DNA of 64,000 bases, from positions 930,001 to 994,000 of the forward strand of contig NW_026515668.1 of assembly GCF_025526975.1 (NCBI RefSeq), read 5' to 3'. The DNA comes from Fimicolochytrium jonesii (lineage: Eukaryota). A program made the position numbers and the translations under genes. Shown here one piece after another: positions 2,677 to 51,940 of this stretch (its first letter is position 1; the number at the start of each line of letters is the position of its first letter). Below the pieces are notes generated by a model. It searched no databases. It was not told the DNA's origin and was given only the letters and a program-made list of their open reading frames with translations.

Positions 2677-3413
2677 CTAAATACCAGCCTGTGTGGCGAA
2701 AGACCATTGGCAATGTGAGCCGTGGCAGGCGGTCCCCATGCCACAACGCAGCGGGACAAACTGCTGGACGTTCATCTGGCTAGAGGGAGCGCGTCACGTC
2801 AGTGGCGGGACCTTTCGAAAATTCACGACTGTTGTACTTACGCGCGGACATGCCCCATACACTGGATGTGGTCGCAGGGGAAGACCCGCACGTCCTCGGC
2901 CAGACAATCGCAGTCGGGCCACACAGAGGTGCAGCGTAGCGCCTGGCAGAAGAGCGGCACTTCACACTCCTCCCTGAAACCGTCCACATGGCCGCACGTG
3001 AACTCCCCGATGGGCGTGTCGGTCTGTTGGGAAGAGACATGAGCTGTCAGTCATTCCACGGGAACCACCCATGACATGCGGTTCCTTACGGTGTCACCAC
3101 AGAGCGGGAGGATGCAAGGTCGGCATATAACGTGCTGGCAAGCCGAGAGGAACATCTTGCGGTGGCGGTACGTGTTGCAGTTCCAACTGGGGGTTCCGGG
3201 GTACTGTCCAAGTGCACCCCAGGGGTGTCCTGAGATAGATTTGGTCGAACCACGTAAGTTCGGTCAATTAGGCAACCTCCGTGGACTCACCACTCGCTGT
3301 CGCTTGAGAGCCTTCTTCAGGCTGTCCCCTGTGGTGGGGCCCTTGCCTACTTTCTTCTTGCCCGATGACGGGCCGGCGGCAGTGGGCTTGGCAGGAGGAG
3401 CTACGCTGGCCAT
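2677..3413 (-). CDS. Antisense four-exon gene for a basic N-terminus plus tandem RING-like Cys/His-rich protein (possibly frameshifted in this copy)
   Basis: Exons 3413-3291, 3229(or 3203)-3090, 3023-2842, 2779-2677. Introns GTGAGT..CAG, GTAAGG..CTGAC..CAG, GTAAGT..CTGAC..TAG. Translation includes WNCNTYRHRKMFLSACQHVICRPC and DCDCLAEDVRVFPCDHIQCMGH...LRCGMGTAC. Confidence 0.72.
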
Positions 3414-3514
3414 AGTGAAGAGGGGAACGGCGACGGTGAGAGGTTACGAGATTGGGAGCAAGAAATGTAAGTCCAGGGACTGGCGGGAAGGTGCCGAGGG
3501 GACTACTGCCTTCG

Positions 3515-3521
3515 TTTTATA
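3515..3521 (-). promoter_or_regulatory. Candidate TATA box (TATAAAA) for the antisense gene
   Basis: TATAAAA on the minus strand about 100 nt upstream of the ATG at 3413. Confidence 0.4.
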
Positions 3522-3755
3522 TGCCGCAGGGACAAGGACCATAGCGCCCCACGACCAGCTGCGGCCGAATCATCTCTACCTCAGATCGACGTGGATCTGA
3601 TTGCCATCGTGGTGACCACCGGTGACGCCAGCTGCTCCAGTAGAGCCATGTGCACTCCTCATGGCCGACACCTGTGTCAGCTTCACATCAAGTAACAGCG
3701 GTGAGCGACTGACAGGTGCGGTCGGTGTCGGAGTGACACTTGGCTCTAAGGGGGG

Positions 3756-3974
3756 TGTAATGAGGTGCTGCAGGTGTCACCTTAGTGCGGGGAAGCGCGT
3801 AGGGCATGAGATCACGTGTAGCATAGATTATATTGGGGTTCTACGCTCTGGGGTGACTCCCAAAGGGAAGAAAAGCCTTCGGGCGGCGCCCCGGGAGGTG
3901 GGAACTCTAGAATTCTTTCAATACATTGAGCGGAGACAGAGCTAGCCTCTGGCAACGGACCTAGCATTATTACA
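3756..3974 (+). repeat. 3' LTR of element 1 (219 bp)
   Basis: Begins TGTAAT directly after the PPT and ends ATTACA (6-bp inverted termini). The PPT AAGGGGGG is identical to that of element 2. The partner LTR is not in the window. Confidence 0.78.
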
Positions 3975-4872
3975 TCGTTCCCCCAACGGCGTCGTGGAGA
4001 ATAGACGGAAGCACCCTACACCCTTCAAGCTTGGCCTTACGCCCCTCACGCTCGCCCTTACGCCCTTCACGTTCGGTCTTACAGCTTCACGCTCTCAGCG
4101 CCGTGGTTTACCATTTGGTACGGCTGGTACGTAGGGGGGTAGGCACTACTACCCCAGAATTCATTTCCCACAAATACTCATCATCCAAAAAACGAATCAT
4201 GGCTCGAGTCCTGCAACATAGGGCACTCAACTCTCCTCTTCCGCTTATGCAGATACCGATAGACGTACATGTGCAGTTTTCGTGTTTGAACCGGAGATGA
4301 GATATGGTGGGTGATCAATGATGACTGATGAGGCTTTGCGAAAAACCGGAGATGGAATGGGGACAGGATGGTTGGACAGAAACAGGATGGTTGCACGGTT
4401 ACGGGATGGTTGGACGGAAACGGGAGACGCAAGGATGGGATGTGGAACTGCCACCTCGTTGCTGCAGGCGTCCCTCTGTCTGATATGGGCCCATACGCAG
4501 ACCGCCATCAATGCCCGCCATAATATCGCACTGAGCATCGTTTTCGCGACGCTTCTTAATGATGGGGATGCTCATCAGTATATGAATGTGACAAAGTGCT
4601 AGATCTCTGGTGACTCTAGCCGTAGTCCCTTCAATAGCATCATTGTACAGTAGTAGTCAAAATGCTGTACAAACATCGGCCACGCTTCGGCCAGGTCTAC
4701 AGAAAAGATCCAGTCCTGATCAGGGCCGCTGCCGGATTCACCTGGAATATATCGGCGGCCACAACGGATGTGTTGAACTTCGGCGCATCGAGTCCGGAAA
4801 CCGTCACAGTAACCGGATATGGCTTGACGAACTTCATTATTTCTGGAGGCGCCGTGCAGCCGACCTTCCAAT

Positions 4873-5066
4873 GTTAACCCTAACCCAAGAGAGGTGACCT
4901 AACACTCCCGAGACCCAAGTTAGGGTTGCGGGTAGGGTTAGGGTCGTTGCGGGTTGCGGTTAGGGTTAGGGTTAGGGTTGGGTTAGGGTTAGGGTTGTGG
5001 GAAAGGAAAATGTGCTCGTACAGCGTTGCGCCAATAATGAAAAGGGTTAGGTTAGCGTTAGGGTTA
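4873..5066. repeat. Interstitial telomere-like repeats, TAACCC then degenerate (TTAGGG)n
   Basis: taaccctaaccc at about 4875, then many ttaggg/ttgcggg units from 4920 to 5066. Confidence 0.9.
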
Positions 5067-5855: not shown

Positions 5856-6694
5856 CTAATCCTCGGCCGCGGGCGCCTCCTCCTCCAAATATTTGACCAG
5901 CCTAACCCTCAACTCCGTCACCTCATCCCCCCTTAACACATCGCTCACAAACCACGCCTCGACCTGCATCTGCACCATCTCGAGCGCGCCGCGCAGCACC
6001 CCGCACAGGATGTTGGAGTACCATAGTTCGGTCACGGCGTCATCTGGCAGCTCGACGAACTCGGATAACGGGTTGTCGTCGAGGATGAGCGAGAATTCTT
6101 TAGAGTCGGCGGAGAAGGAGGTTATTGTGGGGGTTATGTTGAGGAAGATCTTGAAGCCGACCTGCGGGTTGGGAAGGTCGTTGAGAACTTGATCATCAGA
6201 AACCGTCATGAATAATATCTTTGGCCGCTAGATTCATCGCTCTCACCTTTGCTATCGTATCAGCCGTCTCCCGAAAGTCGCCACACTTGTTCACCCCAGA
6301 CTTTGCCAGAAAGTCTTCAATCAATTTCACTCCAATATTGTATCCCCTACAAATTGATAGCCCATAGGAAACAGTCAGCCTTACCACACTAATACAGCCG
6401 CCTATGTACGTTGCGCGGCCGGCTTCCCTCTCCCCGCCCCCAAAAAACGAACCTACATCTTATCTAGATGCTTATTGACCTCAATATAGTTCTCGTGGTC
6501 TTTGATCAGCTGGGCGACAACGGAGCCGTATGTGAGGGTGAACAGCTCGGCGCTCTGCCAAAACGGACCGAAAAGGGTTTGGGGTTAGTGAGGGCGAAGG
6601 ACGGGGTGTTGAAGATGAGCGGAACTTCACGCACGATCTTGTCGACGCGGGTCTTCCATATGTCGTCGCCTGTCTGTCGTGGTTGCTTGAGCAT
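5856..6694 (-). CDS. BET3: TRAPP complex subunit Bet3/TRAPPC3 (4 exons)
   Basis: [60 protein letters not shown]. Confidence 0.97.
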
Positions 6695-7777
6695 GGCTTA
6701 TTTCGGTTCTGGTGGGGAGGCGAGAGAGGATGGGGTTTGGGGTGGGGATGGGTCTTTGAGGCCTTGTCAATCTGCTTGTCAATGGGTTTTCTGAGTGAAC
6801 GAATCCCCACCGTCGCCTCGCATGGGATATGGGTTTGCTAGAGGTTAATAATACAAGGCTGGCCACGGCGGCGTTGCCGCCTCTAAGGTCCAGAAGGCTC
6901 TAAGCGCAGGTCCAGGGCTGGCCAGAGTGCAGTACCGGATATTCGGGACATTTTGACGGTCGGATGGTCTGGCCAGATGGTTTGGTCAGGAGTGGATAAT
7001 CTAAACCAGATTCTTCTGGTTCATTTCCCGCCGTGGAGGGTGTCGGGCACTTTCTCATTCATTGTCTGGCCAGGGCTGGCCAGAAGTGCGGTACCGGATA
7101 TTCGGTACATTTCACACGCGGGGTGTACCGGCGAAGGGTTTGGCCAGATGAAGTGGAAGGCTCTAATAAGTTCGCCTGGGGCGGCCCAGGGCTCCAAAGG
7201 CGCGCGTGGTAAGGCAAGCGTCCGAGAGAGCTCGCCGTGAAGGCCGTAAGTCCGCCGGTGAAGGCTCCAAGTCCGTTAAGTTCTGTATAGACGGGCGGCC
7301 ACCGTACAGTACCTTCCTTCCCCTTCCTTCCGAACGCAATTGTGAGCAGTAAGCATCCCCGTTTTCAGCTTCAACCGCCACCAGGTAACAACCCCAATTC
7401 TTCACCGTTCTCAGCTTCATTATTACCACAGCACTGACGCGAGTTCTTTGACACACAGCTATCACGGCAATCACCTGCAACACCTGTACTGTACATGTAC
7501 ACACACCAGGTGCCGGTACACACACAACCGATCGTACACACACAATGCCGAAACGATGCAACCACGTTGGAGACGCCTACGTCGGAGAGGCCTACGTCGG
7601 GGGAGCAGTTTCAAACGGGGGAGGAGGAGGAGGGGGAGGAGGAGGCCGGGGACTCGGCCCGAGCGCTGGCTCTCACAGTAGCGGGAGCCGTAGCATCTTA
7701 CGCACGATCGGCACCCGGAGCACCACTTAAATTACAAACCTCAACATCAACTCAACAATCCCCTATTTAACCCTACC

Positions 7778-25593: not shown

Positions 25594-26184
25594 AGTAGAC
25601 CATCACATTTTCTCGCCAGTACCCAGAGTCAGACCACCTTGCGTAGATCGCCCCTCCCTGCATTTTCATTTGTGTATCATACTGTGCTTCCATCTATCTA
25701 TCTATTCACGCATCTTAGCCATTTCAATACACTCACACCAAACCACGTTTGCGTACAGTACATGCCGCATGCCACGGCAAGTATACAACTTCCTCATCAC
25801 GGCCATCAAACATTTTACACTTAGAATTTACATGCGCGAGTAACAGCCAATAAACAGCCCACGGATCTAGAGTCTTTTCTGGAGGCGGCAACGCCGCCGT
25901 GGCCAGCCTTGTATGTATGTACAGTACATGACACGCAAGCATAGATATAGCCCGAGATGACAAGTGTGGCAACACATGTAGCCACACACGAACAACATTT
26001 TGATCTCTATTACCGCTGTATGGATACATGCCCACATGCATCCCCCCCGTTGTGCGGCGTCATCCCCAAAGTGTTACTTCGCTGTTCGTGAACAATGGTG
26101 CGTGTATATATGACGGACGCTTGTGAAGTAGGGAGAACGTGAAAGTACCCCTAAAGATTGTACGTGGATGCGGATGCCCTTTCC

Positions 26185-28425: not shown

Positions 28426-28523
28426 GTTAGGGAACCGTGCCTAACCCTAAACCTAACCCTAGCCCTAACCCTAACCCTAACGAACCCTAACCCGAACCCT
28501 AACCCTAGCCGTCTATAACCCTA
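28426..28523. repeat. Interstitial telomere-like repeats in the THOC5/RPB7 divergent promoter
   Basis: gttaggg followed by roughly a dozen perfect or degenerate CCCTAA units. Confidence 0.9.
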
Positions 28524-32085: not shown

Positions 32086-32388
32086 CCACCTCGCAACCCC
32101 ACCCATAACCTCCACCCCACCCACCAACGCCTTCGACACCACAACAAAAGCCGCAGCATCCACCACGCAGGCCGCCACCCTCGCCGCCTACGTGGAACAC
32201 GACCCTGCCAAGCGGGACTCCGAGAAGAATCAGGAGGTGGGGATCAGAAAGGGTGGGAAGGGGACGTTGCCGCCGAATCTGGTTGAGGAGAATGGGCCGT
32301 GAGGGAGGATATACGCCTTTTTGTAATCTGGGCCTGTTCTGGGGGAGGGCCGCGCCAACCCACATTATTTTGCGCGGAAGGCCTAACC

Positions 32389-32550
32389 TGTAAGAGAATG
32401 CTCGCAGAGATCTGTATTCTGAACGTTTATAAAGCTCTCGCTCGATGATAACTAAAAAGGAAAGGGAAGGTCCAGCGTACTCTGCTATGTAGGGAAGAAA
32501 ACAATAAACTGTGCTAGTGTCACGTGGACGCATGGGAGGCTTCTCTCACA
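32389..32550 (-). repeat. 3' LTR of element 2
   Basis: 160/162 identical to 38594-38755; PPT AAGGGGGG (minus strand) adjacent at 32551-32558. Confidence 0.97.
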
Positions 32551-32779
32551 CCCCCCTTAAAACTCGAAGAGTTTTACAGAGAAGCACAGAGAATGAGAAT
32601 GGGGATGGGGATGGTGAAGTCGGTGGTTGTTTCGTTTTGTGGTGACGGTGGTGATGCCTAAACTTCCGAGGAAATGGGGTCGGCAGAGGACCGGTGTCTC
32701 ATTGTTGGTCGCTTGCGGTGGGGTAGGAGGGGTCGTCGGCGGTAGGGGTAGGCGGGAGGGGTTCGTGTCGGTGTACAGT

Positions 32780-35700
32780 AGTCCAGATCGGCCAGTTGTT
32801 CTGGTATGCGGCGAAGGCCAGGGATTTGGCGACGGCGTGGAGCGGTACCCAATCGGCAGTGTGCGGGGGTTACCCTGATCTGCGAGCGAGATAGAGCATG
32901 CGGCCGTATGTTTTGCGTTCACGTAGAATCTCCGCATATGGATGGCCGTCCGCGCTGACTGTGTACAGTGGTGGTTTGTCGGCGGTGTAGAGTCGGAGGA
33001 CGTCGCAATGAAAGACGGGATGTTGTCGTGCGAGGGTTGGGGGTAGTTTGACTTCATACGTATTTGGTTGGGGACCGACCTTGACGACCAGGTATGGACC
33101 GAGGAATTGGGGAAGGATTTTGAGGTTTGAGTTGGGGAGGTTGCGGTATTCGGGGACAGTGAGAGTGTTGCGGTGGCCCAATACATGCGTGCCGGGACCA
33201 AGGCGGGGAACTTGGGGAACGCGGCGGATGTGGGCATAAGCGGCGAATCGGTCTTAGGCTTCGCGGATACGCTCCTTGAGAAGGACCACAATGTCCCCCA
33301 TGCGGCCGGCCCATCCTGTCTGCTCTATGGGAGGAGGAAGGGTGGTTGCCCCCATGTTGCGCGGTGTCTGGAGATGAAATCTAAGATCTGCCTTGAAGGG
33401 AGTCACTCCGGTAGATGCGTTGATGGAGTCGTTATAGGCAAATTCGAGTGAGGCCAGATAGCGAGACCAGTTGCGACCGGTGAGATCCAGTGTAGCCGCT
33501 AGCATGTCTTTGAGAGTTTGAATTGCCCGCTCTGTTTGTCCATCGGTCTGTTGATGCGCGGCGGTTGCGATGGCTGTTTCGAAGCCGAGGTAGTCGGATA
33601 TGGTACGCCAGACCGCAGCCGTGAATTTGGTGTCGCGGTCGGTGACCAGGGTGGATGGAATTCCATGGAGCTTGATGACGTGTTCGCAGAAGAGCTCCCC
33701 AATCTCTTCGGCTGTCACTTCTCTGTGGGTCGGAATCAAGTGAACTCGCTTTGTGAGTCGGTCTACGACGATCATGAGCAGGTCTCTGCCTTTTGAGTCC
33801 ATGGGCAGGAAGGCGAAATCGAGGGTGACGTCGGACCAGCGAGCGTGAGGGATCGGTAGCGGTTGGAGAAGTCCGTGGCGGCGTCGACCAGTCTTGGCTC
33901 TCAGGCAGTTGTCGCATCCATGGACGTACGCTTCGACGGAGCGCTCCATTTTCGGCCAGTAGAAGTGGTGTACGAGTCTCTCCCATGTGCGAAACCATCC
34001 GGGGTGGCCAGCGGCGCCGGCAGTGTGAGCGTCGTGAAGCAATTGGAGCCGCAGCAGGATATCTGGTACGTAGAGGCGATGTTCGTAGAAGAGGAGCCCG
34101 TCTTCTTCTGTGTAGCGCCGCTCTTTCTGACTGCGACCGGTGATCGGGCGCTTGAGGGCTGTGCGTATGGTGTCCGCCAGAGGGTCTTTGGGTAGCGCTG
34201 CGCGAATGATCTCGTGTAGGTCGGTGGACGTGGTCACAATGGTGGAGATCTTGGCGACGTTGCTGCATTTGGAGCACTTTGGCGCATAGTCTGCTTGTCG
34301 GGATAGGAGGTCCGCTAGGGTATTCGCCTCACCGGGGACGTACTGGATATTGATTTCGTACTCTTGCAGTGTCTTGATCCAAGCTGCTTGTCGCCGGGAG
34401 ATATGGGGTTGGGTTTCGAGCCACGTGAGAGCCTTGTGGTCGGTAAGGGCATAGAAAGGCTGCCCACGGAGGTATGGGGACAGGGCCTTGAGCGCTTCCA
34501 CGAGACCGAGGAGTTCCCGCTCGTGCACGCCGTATCTTGTTTGGTATGGAAGTAGTTTGCGGCTCCAATAGGCAACGGGTTTCATCTGGGGCAGGAGTAG
34601 TTTCCAGTCGGCGTGGGCAACGTCGATGTCCTTCCCGGGGGGGGCTGGCTCAGACATGCTCCGATCGCAAAGCCGCTGGCATCAATTTGGAGGAAGATCG
34701 GCCGTATCGGATCGTACCATTGCAGTACGGGGCTGGTGGAGATTGACGTCTTGAGATCTGCGAAGGCTGCCGCCGCGGACTCGGTCCACAGGTACGGGAC
34801 GGTTTTACTGAGGAGGTTACTGAGTGGCAAGGCGCGGTTGGCATAGTTGTGTACGTTCCCGGCCAAGTGGTTGGTGAATCCTAAGAACGCTCTCAACTCG
34901 GCGCGGTCGACGGGTGTGGGCCAGTCTCGTACGGCTTGCGTCTTCGTGGGGTCCACGGTGATGCCGTCTTGTGACACAAGAAAGCCACAGAAAAGTGCGG
35001 AGGGCTGGAAGAACTTGCATTTGGGCAGTTTTGCCGATAATCCGTTGGCCGCCAGTCTTGAGAGTACGATGTGCAGGATTCGCAGGTGCTCCGCGTCGTC
35101 GTTGGTGTAGATCAGTAGGTCATCCATATAGATGATCAACCCCTTGTCAATAAGGTCGGCGAACATGGCGTTCATACAGCAAGTCCATGTCGCGGGCACG
35201 GAGGTTAGACCCATGGGCAGGACTGTCCATTCGAAGTGCCCGAATCGGGTCCTGAAGGCCGTCTTGTGCATGTCCGCGGGATGGAGAGCGATCTTGTGGT
35301 AGGCGTCCAGTATATCAATGGTGGTGAACTTCGTGGCACCGGAGAGTCTGTCGCGGAGCTCGGATAGGTGGGGAATTGGGGTGCGGTCGGGCACTGTCAC
35401 CCGGTTGAGTGCACGGTAATCTACACAGAATTGTAGACCCCCGTCTTTCTTGGCAAAAAATAGAACGGCCGCGCCCCAAGGGGACGAGGAGGGCTTGATC
35501 CATCCTCGCTGCAGTAGTGTTGTGATGCGGCCCTGTAGTTCCTCCAACTCCACGGGTGCCATGTGGTGAAGACGTGAGAAGGCTGGCTTAGCTCCGGGTT
35601 GTGTGCGAATGGAGTGTGCGACATTGGGTACGACTTTGTCGTTGATCCGGAAGACCTCCTCATGGTTGGCAACGATGTCTCTCACTTGCGGCGGGACGGT

Positions 35701-36952
35701 CTGGAGGTTCTTGGCGAAGTCAATCTTGTCAGGGTCTTTCAGGGGCTTTACGTGACAGCGCCGATTATGGTTCCTCCTTTGCGAAGCATGCGGCGCGCCT
35801 GGTGGTGGGAGAGCGGTACGTCATCGGATTCATAGCCGGAGTCGTGTCCATCGACCGTCAACGGGGCAATCACTGGGTTGCGGGGTCGTTTGAAAGGTTT
35901 ACGGGGGCGTGGTAGATCACTCCAGGCATCGGTGGGGAGGAGATGTCGGGCATTCGTGTCGGGGTCAGTGATGGCCAAAGAGACGCGAGGCCGCTCGTGA
36001 TGAAGGCGGGACTAAAGGTCATGAACCAGGGAAGACCGATGATGGCGTCGTACCGTATGTTGGCAATGATTCATGGGAGCTTCTCGGCGTATTCGTCGAT
36101 GGTGATGTCCGCAACAGTGTAGGAGGAGGATGAGCGACGGGAGTCGCGCGCTGCGTATTCAAGTTGGATGCGGGATTCACGAAGGCGTAGGCGGTGTGCT
36201 TTGACAAATTGATCGCTTATCATGTATGTGGAGCACCCGGTGTCGAGGAGGACGGTGGCGGGGTGACCGTGGATGGTGGCCTGGGTGGTCAATCGAGCGT
36301 CCGTCACGAGGGGACCGCTGATACAGTTCCGAGAGTGTACGCAGAGCTCCGCCAGGAGGGCTTGTTCTTGCCGCGCATCTAGCGTACCACCGATGGACTT
36401 CAGTCGGCGTTTAATGTGCACGAGAGCTTGCGAAGTGGATGGCGCCGAGAGCCCGGTGGTAAGGGAGGGTTCGGATAGATCTTGGTTCTGTGGGGACGGT
36501 GTTCTGGGAGGTTTTCTGGGGAGTCTGGGGTCTAGGGTCACCGTCGCGGCCAACGGGCTCAAGGTCTGGGTCACCGTTGGAAACGGGATCTGCGATCTCA
36601 GGTCACCACCGCGAATAGCAGGGGTAGCGTCGTGGTCACCGTGCGAAACGGGCAGGAGGTTCGCCAAACCGATCATCGTGGGATCAAGGACAGGGGGGGC
36701 GTTGGTCGTTGTGAAAGGGGAAGATACGTGTTGGAACGCCGCGGGGTCTACTGCGCGTCTCGTGTGGAGAATAGGTGGGACAGGTGTTGGGTCCTCCGTG
36801 GCGTGGAGGGGAATACAATTGGCCGCGGTGAGTGGTGTAGGTTTGGGGATTTGCGCGGGCTCGGGGAAGAACCCGACGCGTCGGCGTTTCCGCGGGGCGG
36901 TTGGCTCGCGGCCGGCGGGCAGATCAGGGGGTTGACCAAGGTTAGGTCCCAA
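32780..36952 (-). pseudogene. pol: pol of element 2 with several frameshifts/stops
   Basis: Protease VLLDTGCST; RT CVDYRALN, KTAFRTRFGHFEWTVLPMGL, YMDD; RNase H IDASGFAIG, TDHKAL; integrase HDAH..GHPG..CDNC, VTDRDTKF, HQQTDGQTE; degraded chromodomain near 32800-32940. Confidence 0.93.
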
Positions 36953-38434
36953 GAGCGTGGTCGTCGCTCTGAGACGTTTTAAAAACCCGTCTGGATCTGG
37001 CGGTCCGGGTGGTCATGTCGATCTCCGGCGCGCGGTCGTCCTGGTTGTCTGTTGTCGGTTCGAGGTTCCGGATGGCGACTGGCCAAGGGGGCATGTTGGG
37101 GCAGAGGTATGCAACGTGACCATGTTGGCGGCACCGAAGGCATAGCCCTTCTCGAAGACTGCCAGCTCTCTCTTCTGGGGTCAAACGTTCAAGTCTCGCG
37201 GCCGGCCAGTTGGCAAAGCGGCTTTTCTTTGCGTCGGCTTGGGCTACGGCAGCGCCCGGAAACGCGCGCTTGGCTGGCCAGGTAGATGTGGGGGTGCTGC
37301 TTGAAGCGAAGCGGTTGCCGTGGGTTCGAGGGTCTTGTTCTTGTTTGGCCTTCTGGCAAGGAAGGAGCGGTAGGTGGCGCAATCGAGACGGTCCGCGATG
37401 TCGTAGACCTCATCAACGGAGAGGGTCTTTACGTTCGACTGGGCTAAGATGTGTTCCGCGATCTTGTCCTTGAGGCCTCGAATGAAGTACCTCGCAGCGT
37501 CGGTCTCGGTGACCTGTGGGCCGGATACATGAAGTTTCTGAAAGTCTTTGTAATAAGCATCAACGGAGGTCAACTGCTTCAGGGTCTCGAGAGCGTTGCG
37601 GGCTTGGTTGGTAGCGCGGCTAGGGATGAAACGGTTGCGAACCGCTGCTGCAAAGTCCTGCCAGGTGACGACAACGCGGCAGCCGACCTGATCGAACCAG
37701 GTAGCAGCGAGACCATCCAGGCGGCCTGCGGCCATCTCGATCTTGCCGACATCGGTCATAAGAGGGGCTGTGCGGAAGTGGCGTTTGAAGGCCGCAAGGA
37801 ATTGGTTGCGTTTCGCGATGTCGCGGGTGCCGTCGTAGCGATGGACGCTCTTGCGCAAATCTTTCGCGATGGCAGTTTCTTGGACAATGAGGGTTTCGGG
37901 GGTCACCGGCGAGGGAAGCTGGCTCCAGGGGTCAATGCGCAGGGTGCGGTTCGGGTAGGGGGCTTGGCCGCGTGGGGCGTTGGCAACCGGGTTGCGCATC
38001 GACGGAGGTCGAGGAATAACAACCGGCTGCGGCGCAGCTTTAGCGTCTGCGGTTTGGCAATGGAGGAAGGCCATGATCTCTTGATTCTGCAAATAGAGGC
38101 GCTTGGACAGTTGGGCCAGCTCAGCGCGGGTGGGCAGCTCCTGGCCGTTGTCAGCGTCGGAGTCGTCCTCGGCGATCGGTTCATCTGGCGGAGTGGGAGG
38201 GCCATCGATCTCGGTTCCCTCCTGCTGATAGTCTTGGTGTTGAGCCTCTAGGTCCTCCGGTAGAGCGTCCTGGTGTGATTCGTTGTCGTCGTTCCCACGT
38301 TGGTCAGTGGCATCGTCGGGCCCAGCCTGCTCCGTACGCTCAACAGCTTCCTCAACTCGCTTGAATTGGCGGCCGTCAGAGGCTTCGCCGCAAACGAGAA
38401 CGGTGCGGGACCTGGTCTTTCCAAGTTTGGTCAT
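36942..38434 (-). pseudogene. gag: gag of element 2 (frameshift before the zinc knuckle)
   Basis: RLDGLAATWF..TWQDFAAAVRNRF..LKQLTSVDAYYKDF..FIRGLK; the CLRCRQHGHVAYLC knuckle is in a second frame. Confidence 0.9.
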
Positions 38435-38580
38435 TCTGGCGAGAGAAGGTCGTGGGAAAATGGTGGCGAGGTGAAGATGCACAAAGACGTGGTGAGGCGG
38501 CAACGACGGTAAAACGCAGGACAGTGTACAGGTGAGGTGGTGGAACGTCGGCGGGTTCTCTGGGGCTGTCTCAACGTTTG

Positions 38581-38593
38581 GTGGATGCTACCA
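38581..38593 (-). promoter_or_regulatory. Primer-binding site, probably tRNAi-Met
   Basis: TGGTAGCATCCAC directly after the 5' LTR; TGGTAGC is complementary to the GCUACCA 3' end of initiator tRNA-Met as in Ty1/Ty3. Confidence 0.7.
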
Positions 38594-38755
38594 TGTAAGA
38601 GAATGCTCGCAGAGATCTGTATTCTGAACGTTTATAAAGCTCTCGCTCGATGATAACTAAAAAGGAAAGGGAAGGTCCAGGGTACTCTGCTATGTAGGGA
38701 AGAAAACAATAAACTGTGCTAGTGTCACGTGGACGCATGGGATGCTTCTCTCACA
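38594..38755 (-). repeat. 5' LTR of element 2
   Basis: Direct repeat of 32389-32550. Confidence 0.97.
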
Positions 38756-38870
38756 TAACCCCACCCCTTACCCCAACCACGCCTAACCCTAACCCTAACC
38801 CTAACCCTAGGCGTGTTGTGCACGGCTAAACCAACGCTGAATTCGTTAGGTAGGCGTGGGGTTAGGGTTA
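38756..38870. repeat. Interstitial telomere-like repeats flanking element 2
   Basis: taacc..(cctaac)x4 cctag ... ggggttagggtta. Confidence 0.88.
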
Positions 38871-51807: not shown

Positions 51808-51940
51808 GCGACGGTGGGGATTCTGGTGGGGATTCGTTCACTCAGGAAACCCATTGACAAGCAGATTGACACCCCAAACCCCATCCCCTCTCGCCTCCCC
51901 ACCAGAACCGAAATAAGCCATGCTCAAGCAACCACGACAG
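51808..51940 (+). repeat. Duplicated fragment of the BET3 5' region (inverted copy of about 6674-6816)
   Basis: Shared strings gattcgttcactcag, cccattgacaagcagattgac and ctcgcctccccaccagaaccgaaataagccATGctcaagcaaccacgacag. Confidence 0.95.

Follow-up and report, generated by a model that had tools for sequence, protein, structure and literature searches.

The 64,000-nt window analysed here comes from a fungal host. Its genes have short GT-AG introns and include housekeeping ones (a TRAPP subunit, a WD40 protein and a HEAT-repeat protein), and the window opens inside a decayed retrotransposon. The host is probably a chytrid, since homologues of the cargo gene described below were found only from Powellomyces. 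Positions 1–2217 of the plus strand encode the 3′ part of a chromovirus pol, comprising RNase H, the integrase zinc finger and core, a Tf2-type SH3 domain and a chromodomain. The Pfam matches fall across three ORFs (RT_RNaseH, 9e-24; Integrase_H2C2, 2.4e-14; rve, 4e-4; SH3_Tf2-1, 1e-12), and the chromodomain at the integrase C-terminus (PF00385, Chromo) scores above its cut-off (E 1.5e-7). RNase H precedes integrase in pol, which places the element among the Ty3/gypsy chromoviruses. The pol frame changes twice, at about 550 and about 1515–1570 (tblastn frames 1/2/1), and an integrase search returned no close relative, the best match being 38%. A tandem array of 31–32-bp units with a 92-bp higher-order unit (2281–2588) separates the pol stop from the 3′ end of a gene on the opposite strand. 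Beyond that gene is a polypurine tract (PPT; 3748–3755, plus strand), whose AAGGGGGG junction with TGT is identical in a complete second element of the window. It is followed by a likely 3′ LTR of 219 nt (TGTAAT...ATTACA; 3756–3974, plus strand), recognised from the succession of PPT and TG...CA. The 5′ LTR falls before base 1 of the window, and 3756–3974 has no further copy within these 64 kb. Just past the likely LTR are short tandem arrays of 21 bp and 19 bp, at 4017–4094 and 4363–4425.

The second element is a complete Ty3/gypsy copy on the minus strand (32383–38755) with gag, RT, RNase H and integrase, and 123 of 307 integrase residues are identical to those of the first. Its LTRs (about 162 nt; 32389–32550 and 38594–38755) are nearly identical and are accompanied by a 5-bp duplication, TAACC; its short 3′ region holds no extra gene. 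Since the LTRs are near-identical and yet the element has several frame changes, some repeat indels could be assembly errors. Interstitial telomere-like (TTAGGG)n tracts lie among the host genes at 4919–4996, 28440–28521 and 38782–38809; the last is about 25 nt past the 5′ LTR of the second element, and the target duplication is itself telomere-like. Two pairs of near-identical inverted pieces (6674–6811 with 51825–51940, and 6851–6883 with 25882–25914) probably represent a small dispersed repeat.

A spliced gene antisense to the element

Between the pol stop and the PPT/LTR-like end, the minus strand carries a spliced gene of four exons that is almost certainly real. The first-pass annotation had proposed such a gene, and its positions for the TATA motif, the start codon and all three introns hold; the splice-site ranks and the matches to homologues given below bear out the gene itself. 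As a coding gene antisense to the element and situated between pol and the likely 3′ LTR, it has the layout of an aORF-3R. A TATA-box-like sequence, TATAAAA (3521–3515, recognised as a motif only), lies about 100 nt upstream of the first downstream ATG, at 3413; this heptamer occurs four times in the 128 kb of the two strands. Exon 1 (3413–3291) is rich in Pro, Thr and Lys, with basic tracts that a regular expression scores as bipartite-NLS-like. Intron 1 (3290–3230) is 61 nt long and in phase 0, with a donor ranked 2 of 102. Exon 2 (3229–3090) encodes the RING-like core of a first Cys/His module, in which a frameshift near 3186–3188 removes the first zinc ligand. Intron 2 (3089–3024; 66 nt, phase 0) contains an in-frame TGA and is missing from P0028, a cluster of hypothetical proteins of Powellomyces hirtus. 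Exon 3 (3023–2842) has a GC3 of 50/60 and supplies the end of module 1 and most of a second module, and intron 3 (2841–2780; 62 nt, phase 2) has the top-ranked donor and, if retained, an in-frame stop at that donor. A second AG, at 2776, neighbours its acceptor at 2780. Exon 4 (2779–2677), which ends in the stop codon, encodes the last Cys pair of module 2 and matches residues 148–174 of P0028. We found no terminal inverted or direct repeats flanking the gene, and rejected a nested DNA transposon as its carrier on that ground.

A crude motif scan of this region was weak: it recovered two introns, missed intron 1, and was equalled by 137 of 3000 shuffles with at least two introns (p about 0.05). 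Taken alone, this value would leave some room for chance splice signals next to a chance Cys-rich frame. Against the homologues that reading fails and can be dismissed: three exons independently match annotated proteins, whereas the introns do not. Weight matrices, trained on 31 host candidate introns that were picked by consensus and are unvalidated, ranked the three donors 1, 2 and 4 of 102 on the minus strand and the three acceptors 2, 3 and 5 of 74. The best gene parse scored 22.0 and none of 600 shuffles reached it (maximum 21.4), although this parse used the downstream ATG 3155 and the neighbouring AG 2776. GC3 was 126/166 across the exons, and introns 1 and 2, translated in the exon frame, gave 21/42 (p 0.002). 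The exon value of 0.76 resembles those of pol (0.75–0.83) and of the host genes (0.65–0.82). The plus-strand mirror frame has equal GC3 and a higher codon score than the antisense gene, so composition alone leaves the strand undecided, and it is homology that settles it. We rejected a sense-strand ORF read in that mirror frame, whose best parse scored 0.5 at the intron penalty of the shuffle test, and also an unspliced ORF with nonsense codons, because the introns show neither GC3 bias nor homology. Both occurrences of the motif C-x-H-x2-C-x2-[CH] in the six frames of the window fall inside the antisense gene.

Homologues in Powellomyces hirtus and in a DNA virus

A HMMER search of 1.84 billion representative proteins gave three hits, P0026, P0028 and P0027, the last of which is a Rib-repeat protein and was discarded as spurious. 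P0026 (E 8.8e-14) is the 'oncoid' DAC81638.1 of Powellomyces chytrid fungus MELD virus 1, deposited on a virus genome record of 21,205 bp; this presence of the family in a chytrid MELD (polinton-like) DNA virus had escaped the first-pass annotation. P0028 matched with an E of 3.7e-4. We identified five P. hirtus homologues (KAI8911323.1, KAI8921334.1, KAI8921335.1, KAI8903067.1 and KAI8904226.1) on four contigs, sharing 83–91 of their first 91 residues (91–100% identical). Copies so dispersed and near-identical suggest a mobile carrier. A profile search found three clusters among 2438 candidates, adding one P. hirtus gene and otherwise nothing, so that relatives were detected only in P. hirtus and in one Powellomyces MELD virus. 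Other searches gave little: exon 3 alone against longer proteins led to no confirmed candidate (0/1), pattern matches in viral contigs were confirmed in 0/7, 0/5 and 0/23 cases, and phages held no match to the gene. A metagenome match (L001; 1/141) was set aside as chance, lying antisense to a prokaryotic response-regulator-like gene, and the single Rfam hit (E 0.34) was put down to chance.

With the break written as X, the spliced model is identical to P0028 at 70 of 158 positions (44%; range among P. hirtus proteins, 44–46%), and Cys residues are kept at 12 of 16 positions vs 54 of 153 for other residues. The viral oncoid shares 40–48% identity with the model over both modules, and 53% with the P. 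hirtus copies. We compared the exons and introns separately with shuffled sequences. None of 3000 shuffles did as well as exon 4 against P0028, or as exon 3 against P0026 and against P0028, and exon 2 matched the homologues beyond 3000 of 3000 shuffles. Exon 1 showed no significant similarity to the homologues (2706/3000), which are likewise basic there. Intron 2, translated in frame, showed none either (1832/3000 shuffles as good), and homology to P0028 resumes at 2781, past intron 3.

The same comparison bears on the frame of exon 2. Splicing at the acceptor AG 3230 misses the Cys frame, and use of AG 3204 would yield an open frame of 173 codons; the first-pass annotation had offered either AG 3204 or a single base lost near 3187, whose restoration gives the first CxxC. 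The branch score of intron 1 is 7.3 for AG 3230 vs 2.0 for AG 3204, and the segment 3229–3188 fits P0028 in the AG-3230 frame (0/3000 shuffles as good) and not in the Cys frame (276/3000). AG 3204 was therefore rejected for its weak branch site and on homology, and AG 2776 was rejected because it would shorten the conserved exon 4. Together, the exon and segment matches indicate that the acceptors 3230 and 2780 are right and that this copy is frameshifted near 3187. At the break, all four aligned P. hirtus and viral homologues have Cys where the first ligand was predicted, so this part of the proposal stands; since they are also about five residues longer, the lesion is not necessarily of a single base. 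We conclude that the window copy is most likely broken and would make no intact protein. The intact gene is predicted to encode a protein of roughly 180 residues, in which a RING-like module is followed by another Cys/His module.

The viral ORF, P0026, has 25-residue insertions where introns 1 and 2 lie in the window gene, and it stops at the donor of intron 3; since insertions and end coincide with the introns, the intron positions look shared, as read from the protein. We infer that the viral gene has these same three introns and was deposited unspliced, as an ORF without the exon-4 part present in the window gene. This suggests that the viral 'oncoid' may be a mis-called, spliced RING-like gene whose annotation may need revision. 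Judged by these protein comparisons, the family is probably one truly shared between the retrotransposon and the DNA virus.

The same introns allow a quite improbable alternative, in which the family is purely retrotransposon cargo and the 'viral' copy belongs to a retrotransposon that was inserted into the virus of the 21-kb MELD record, or was joined to that record as an assembly chimera. Host-type introns apparently kept in a viral ORF fit this idea, as do the labelling of that ORF as an oncoid from short motifs only, in the text of PMC8502044, and the Gag-like genes of some MELD-related elements named in the Fig. 5 legend of the same paper. The deposition of the gene within a 21,205-bp virus genome speaks against it, and so does the divergence of the viral gene, whose identity to the P. 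hirtus copies is just 53%.

We regard the antisense gene as cargo borne by the chromovirus itself, and do so with good confidence. The gene might instead be a passenger, a MELD virus or host gene inserted once into the 3′ region of the element and without a role in its cycle. Such an origin would account for the single, broken copy seen, for the lack of a similar gene in the second chromovirus and for the viral identity of the closest relative. We consider it rather unlikely, because insertion-type flanking repeats are missing, GC3 is like that of pol, and the whole gene with its TATA motif sits where antisense extra ORFs typically lie and points the same way. Moreover, no homologue reaches 50% identity with the gene, which has nonetheless kept its Cys and His residues; this implies a long separate history under selection.

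The two modules and a proposed role

Module 1 looks RING-like by its ligand order, by sub-threshold Pfam hits and by weak fold matches that are almost all to RINGs. Its spacing is C-x2-C-x12-C-x-H-x2-C-x2-C with the last pair widened to C-x4-C, and eight ligands in RING order are kept in P0026, P0028 and P0031, the window copy having lost ligand 1. Pfam zf-RING_5 matched window exon 2 at E 2.6e-4 with 21.4 bits, under the gathering cut-off of 27.9; across this exon and all four homologues scanned, the scores were 17.5–23 bits, all below that cut-off. A family profile aligned with the RING of PCGF5 (E 0.009) along 39 columns without a gap. P0028 gave a poor AlphaFold model overall (mean pLDDT 44), with about residues 57–113 only at 50–70, and the best fold match, which lies in this 50–70 region, had Z 4.9, rmsd 3.7 and 64 aligned residues; none attained a Z of 5 or an E of 0.001. 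Of 50 fold rows, about 47 were RING, SP-RING or U-box chains, some of them classed by the identity of the chain, and the weak viral fold matches were mostly RING proteins, such as PE38 and IE2. Single-exon queries of PDB sequences had no match better than E 0.49, and a single-sequence fold was discarded (pLDDT 29).

Module 2 may be called RING-like by its ligand pattern only. This pattern, C-x4-C...C-x-H-x2-C-x2-H...C-x5-C, is conserved across the homologues and matches no Pfam family; in the P0028 model the region has a pLDDT under 50 and is without fold support. In the window copy the first ligand of module 2 is Ser. The ligand spacing of both modules is the same in the P. hirtus proteins and in the window model. 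Of the tandem RING-like modules described earlier, the first is supported as RING-like. A duplication between the two is undetectable (hhalign E 0.12; 73/200 column shuffles as good), and an internal duplication of module 1 to give module 2 was rejected on this result.

The earlier proposal of a nuclear ubiquitin ligase loses ground. On such a reading, the same element-borne gene would encode an active RING E3 whose ubiquitylation substrate is a silencing or restriction factor of the host; ICP0 offers an analogy. It would agree with the retention of all eight module 1 ligands in P0026, P0028 and P0031, with the RING proteins among the viral fold matches and with a His after the last Cys of module 2, at the linchpin position. 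In module 1, by contrast, the linchpin position holds Gly, Gly or Glu, lacking the cationic residue of active E3s. In RINGs, a hydrophobic residue before the second Cys and a Pro in the last pair contact the E2; in module 1 the former is replaced by Lys or Asn and the latter is absent. The C-x4-C widening of the last pair is also found in RBR RING1. No IBR family was found at E up to 10 in a 178-aa homologue, nor was RING2; with neither domain and only two modules, the protein is not an RBR ligase. Most active RING E3s carry a cationic linchpin after the last ligand, and its role is described in passages of PMC12326332 and PMC11992055; TRIM32 is an active RING without one, as noted in the latter. 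With the Pfam scores below the gathering cut-off as well, an active ligase role appears unlikely.

Without a cationic linchpin, module 1 is likelier to be a RING partner or decoy than a stand-alone ligase. Our favoured account, held with moderate confidence, is that of a decayed chromovirus carrying a frameshifted, four-exon accessory cargo common to chytrid selfish elements, which probably encodes a nuclear, non-catalytic RING partner or decoy. Antisense introns are not spliced out of the genomic RNA of a retrotransposon, so the gene would survive reverse transcription whole and would need a promoter of its own. The TATA motif is the candidate promoter and would drive the antisense transcript. 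Nuclear import would depend on the basic N-terminus, and two zinc ions would be bound by module 1 in a RING fold. The least certain steps are that module 1, not discharging ubiquitin itself, might pair with a RING or an E2 of the host, and that this partner or decoy action might ease silencing of the element. That such a role is directed against the host ubiquitin-chromatin machinery is a tentative proposal, which we hold as doubtful. A DNA virus integrating in the same hosts would profit from the same anti-silencing activity.

A bolder version would have an intron-bearing RING gene travel between an LTR retrotransposon and a polinton-like virus, mimic the PCGF subunit of PRC1, a complex kept by these early-diverging fungi, and so disable silencing of its carrier. 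Spizellomyces punctatus belongs, like Powellomyces, to the order Spizellomycetales. PRC1 orthologues are reported in that species in a passage of PMC10638273, which makes a PCGF mimic possible. The mimicry idea rests on one marginal profile hit, that to PCGF5 (E 0.009), and we regard the whole scheme as a long shot. If it were true, it would mean a retrotransposon-encoded RING anti-silencer and a pool of accessory genes spanning elements that replicate through RNA and through DNA.

Comparison with known systems

The RING-HC domains of PCGF/BMI1 (PRC1) share the spacing of module 1 and align with it without gaps in PCGF5, but here no RAWUL, IBR or RING2 was found. The closest known relative is the MELD virus 1 oncoid (Starrett et al. 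2021, PMC8502044), a homologue whose carrier, in contrast, is a polinton-like dsDNA virus. By the oncoid definition of that work, the family has the paired CxxC (two each in P0026, P0028 and P0031), whereas the Rb-binding motif LxCxE is absent from all four sequences (0/4; P0026, P0028, P0031 and the window model). The main text of PMC8502044 on this oncoid does not use the word RING. The P. hirtus proteins are full-length (178 aa), spliced and intact at the first ligand, unlike the broken window copy. Their natural, intact state would allow activity to be assayed directly, and an origin by exchange between co-resident selfish elements is testable.

Literature searches turned up neither a RING gene carried by an LTR retrotransposon nor an earlier account of this gene family, and excerpts of PMC3248453 and PMC9289625 contain no RING cargo. 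The window gene shares its slot and orientation with the antisense extra ORFs of plant elements (Grande gene23, RIRE2, Retand and PvRetro13) and with brtn of the Boty-like Ty3/gypsy elements of Botrytis and Sclerotinia, which is likewise a spliced gene. The claim that such genes lack any description in fungal chromoviruses therefore falls: antisense genes between pol and the 3′ LTR are known both from plants and from Boty-like elements of Botrytis and Sclerotinia (PMC7264820), and the antisense brtn gene of Botrytis Boty elements is already in print (PMC7264820, and a passage of PMC8365987). The Grande antisense gene has its own promoter and a nuclear product (PMC7264820), and Retand also carries a tandem repeat, going by a reference title in the same review. 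That 2020 review describes antisense ORF proteins as without clear similarity to known ones and as lacking counterparts among other elements and viruses, and it names no RING (PMC7264820). The window gene differs from the reviewed ORFs in both respects: it encodes a domain that looks like a RING, and it has a DNA-virus homologue. We conclude that the antisense layout is not new, Boty and brtn having preceded it, and that the novelty lies in a RING-like cargo that a polinton-like DNA virus has in common with the retrotransposon. This suggests an exchange, between unrelated selfish elements, of a small helper gene whose product is probably nuclear.
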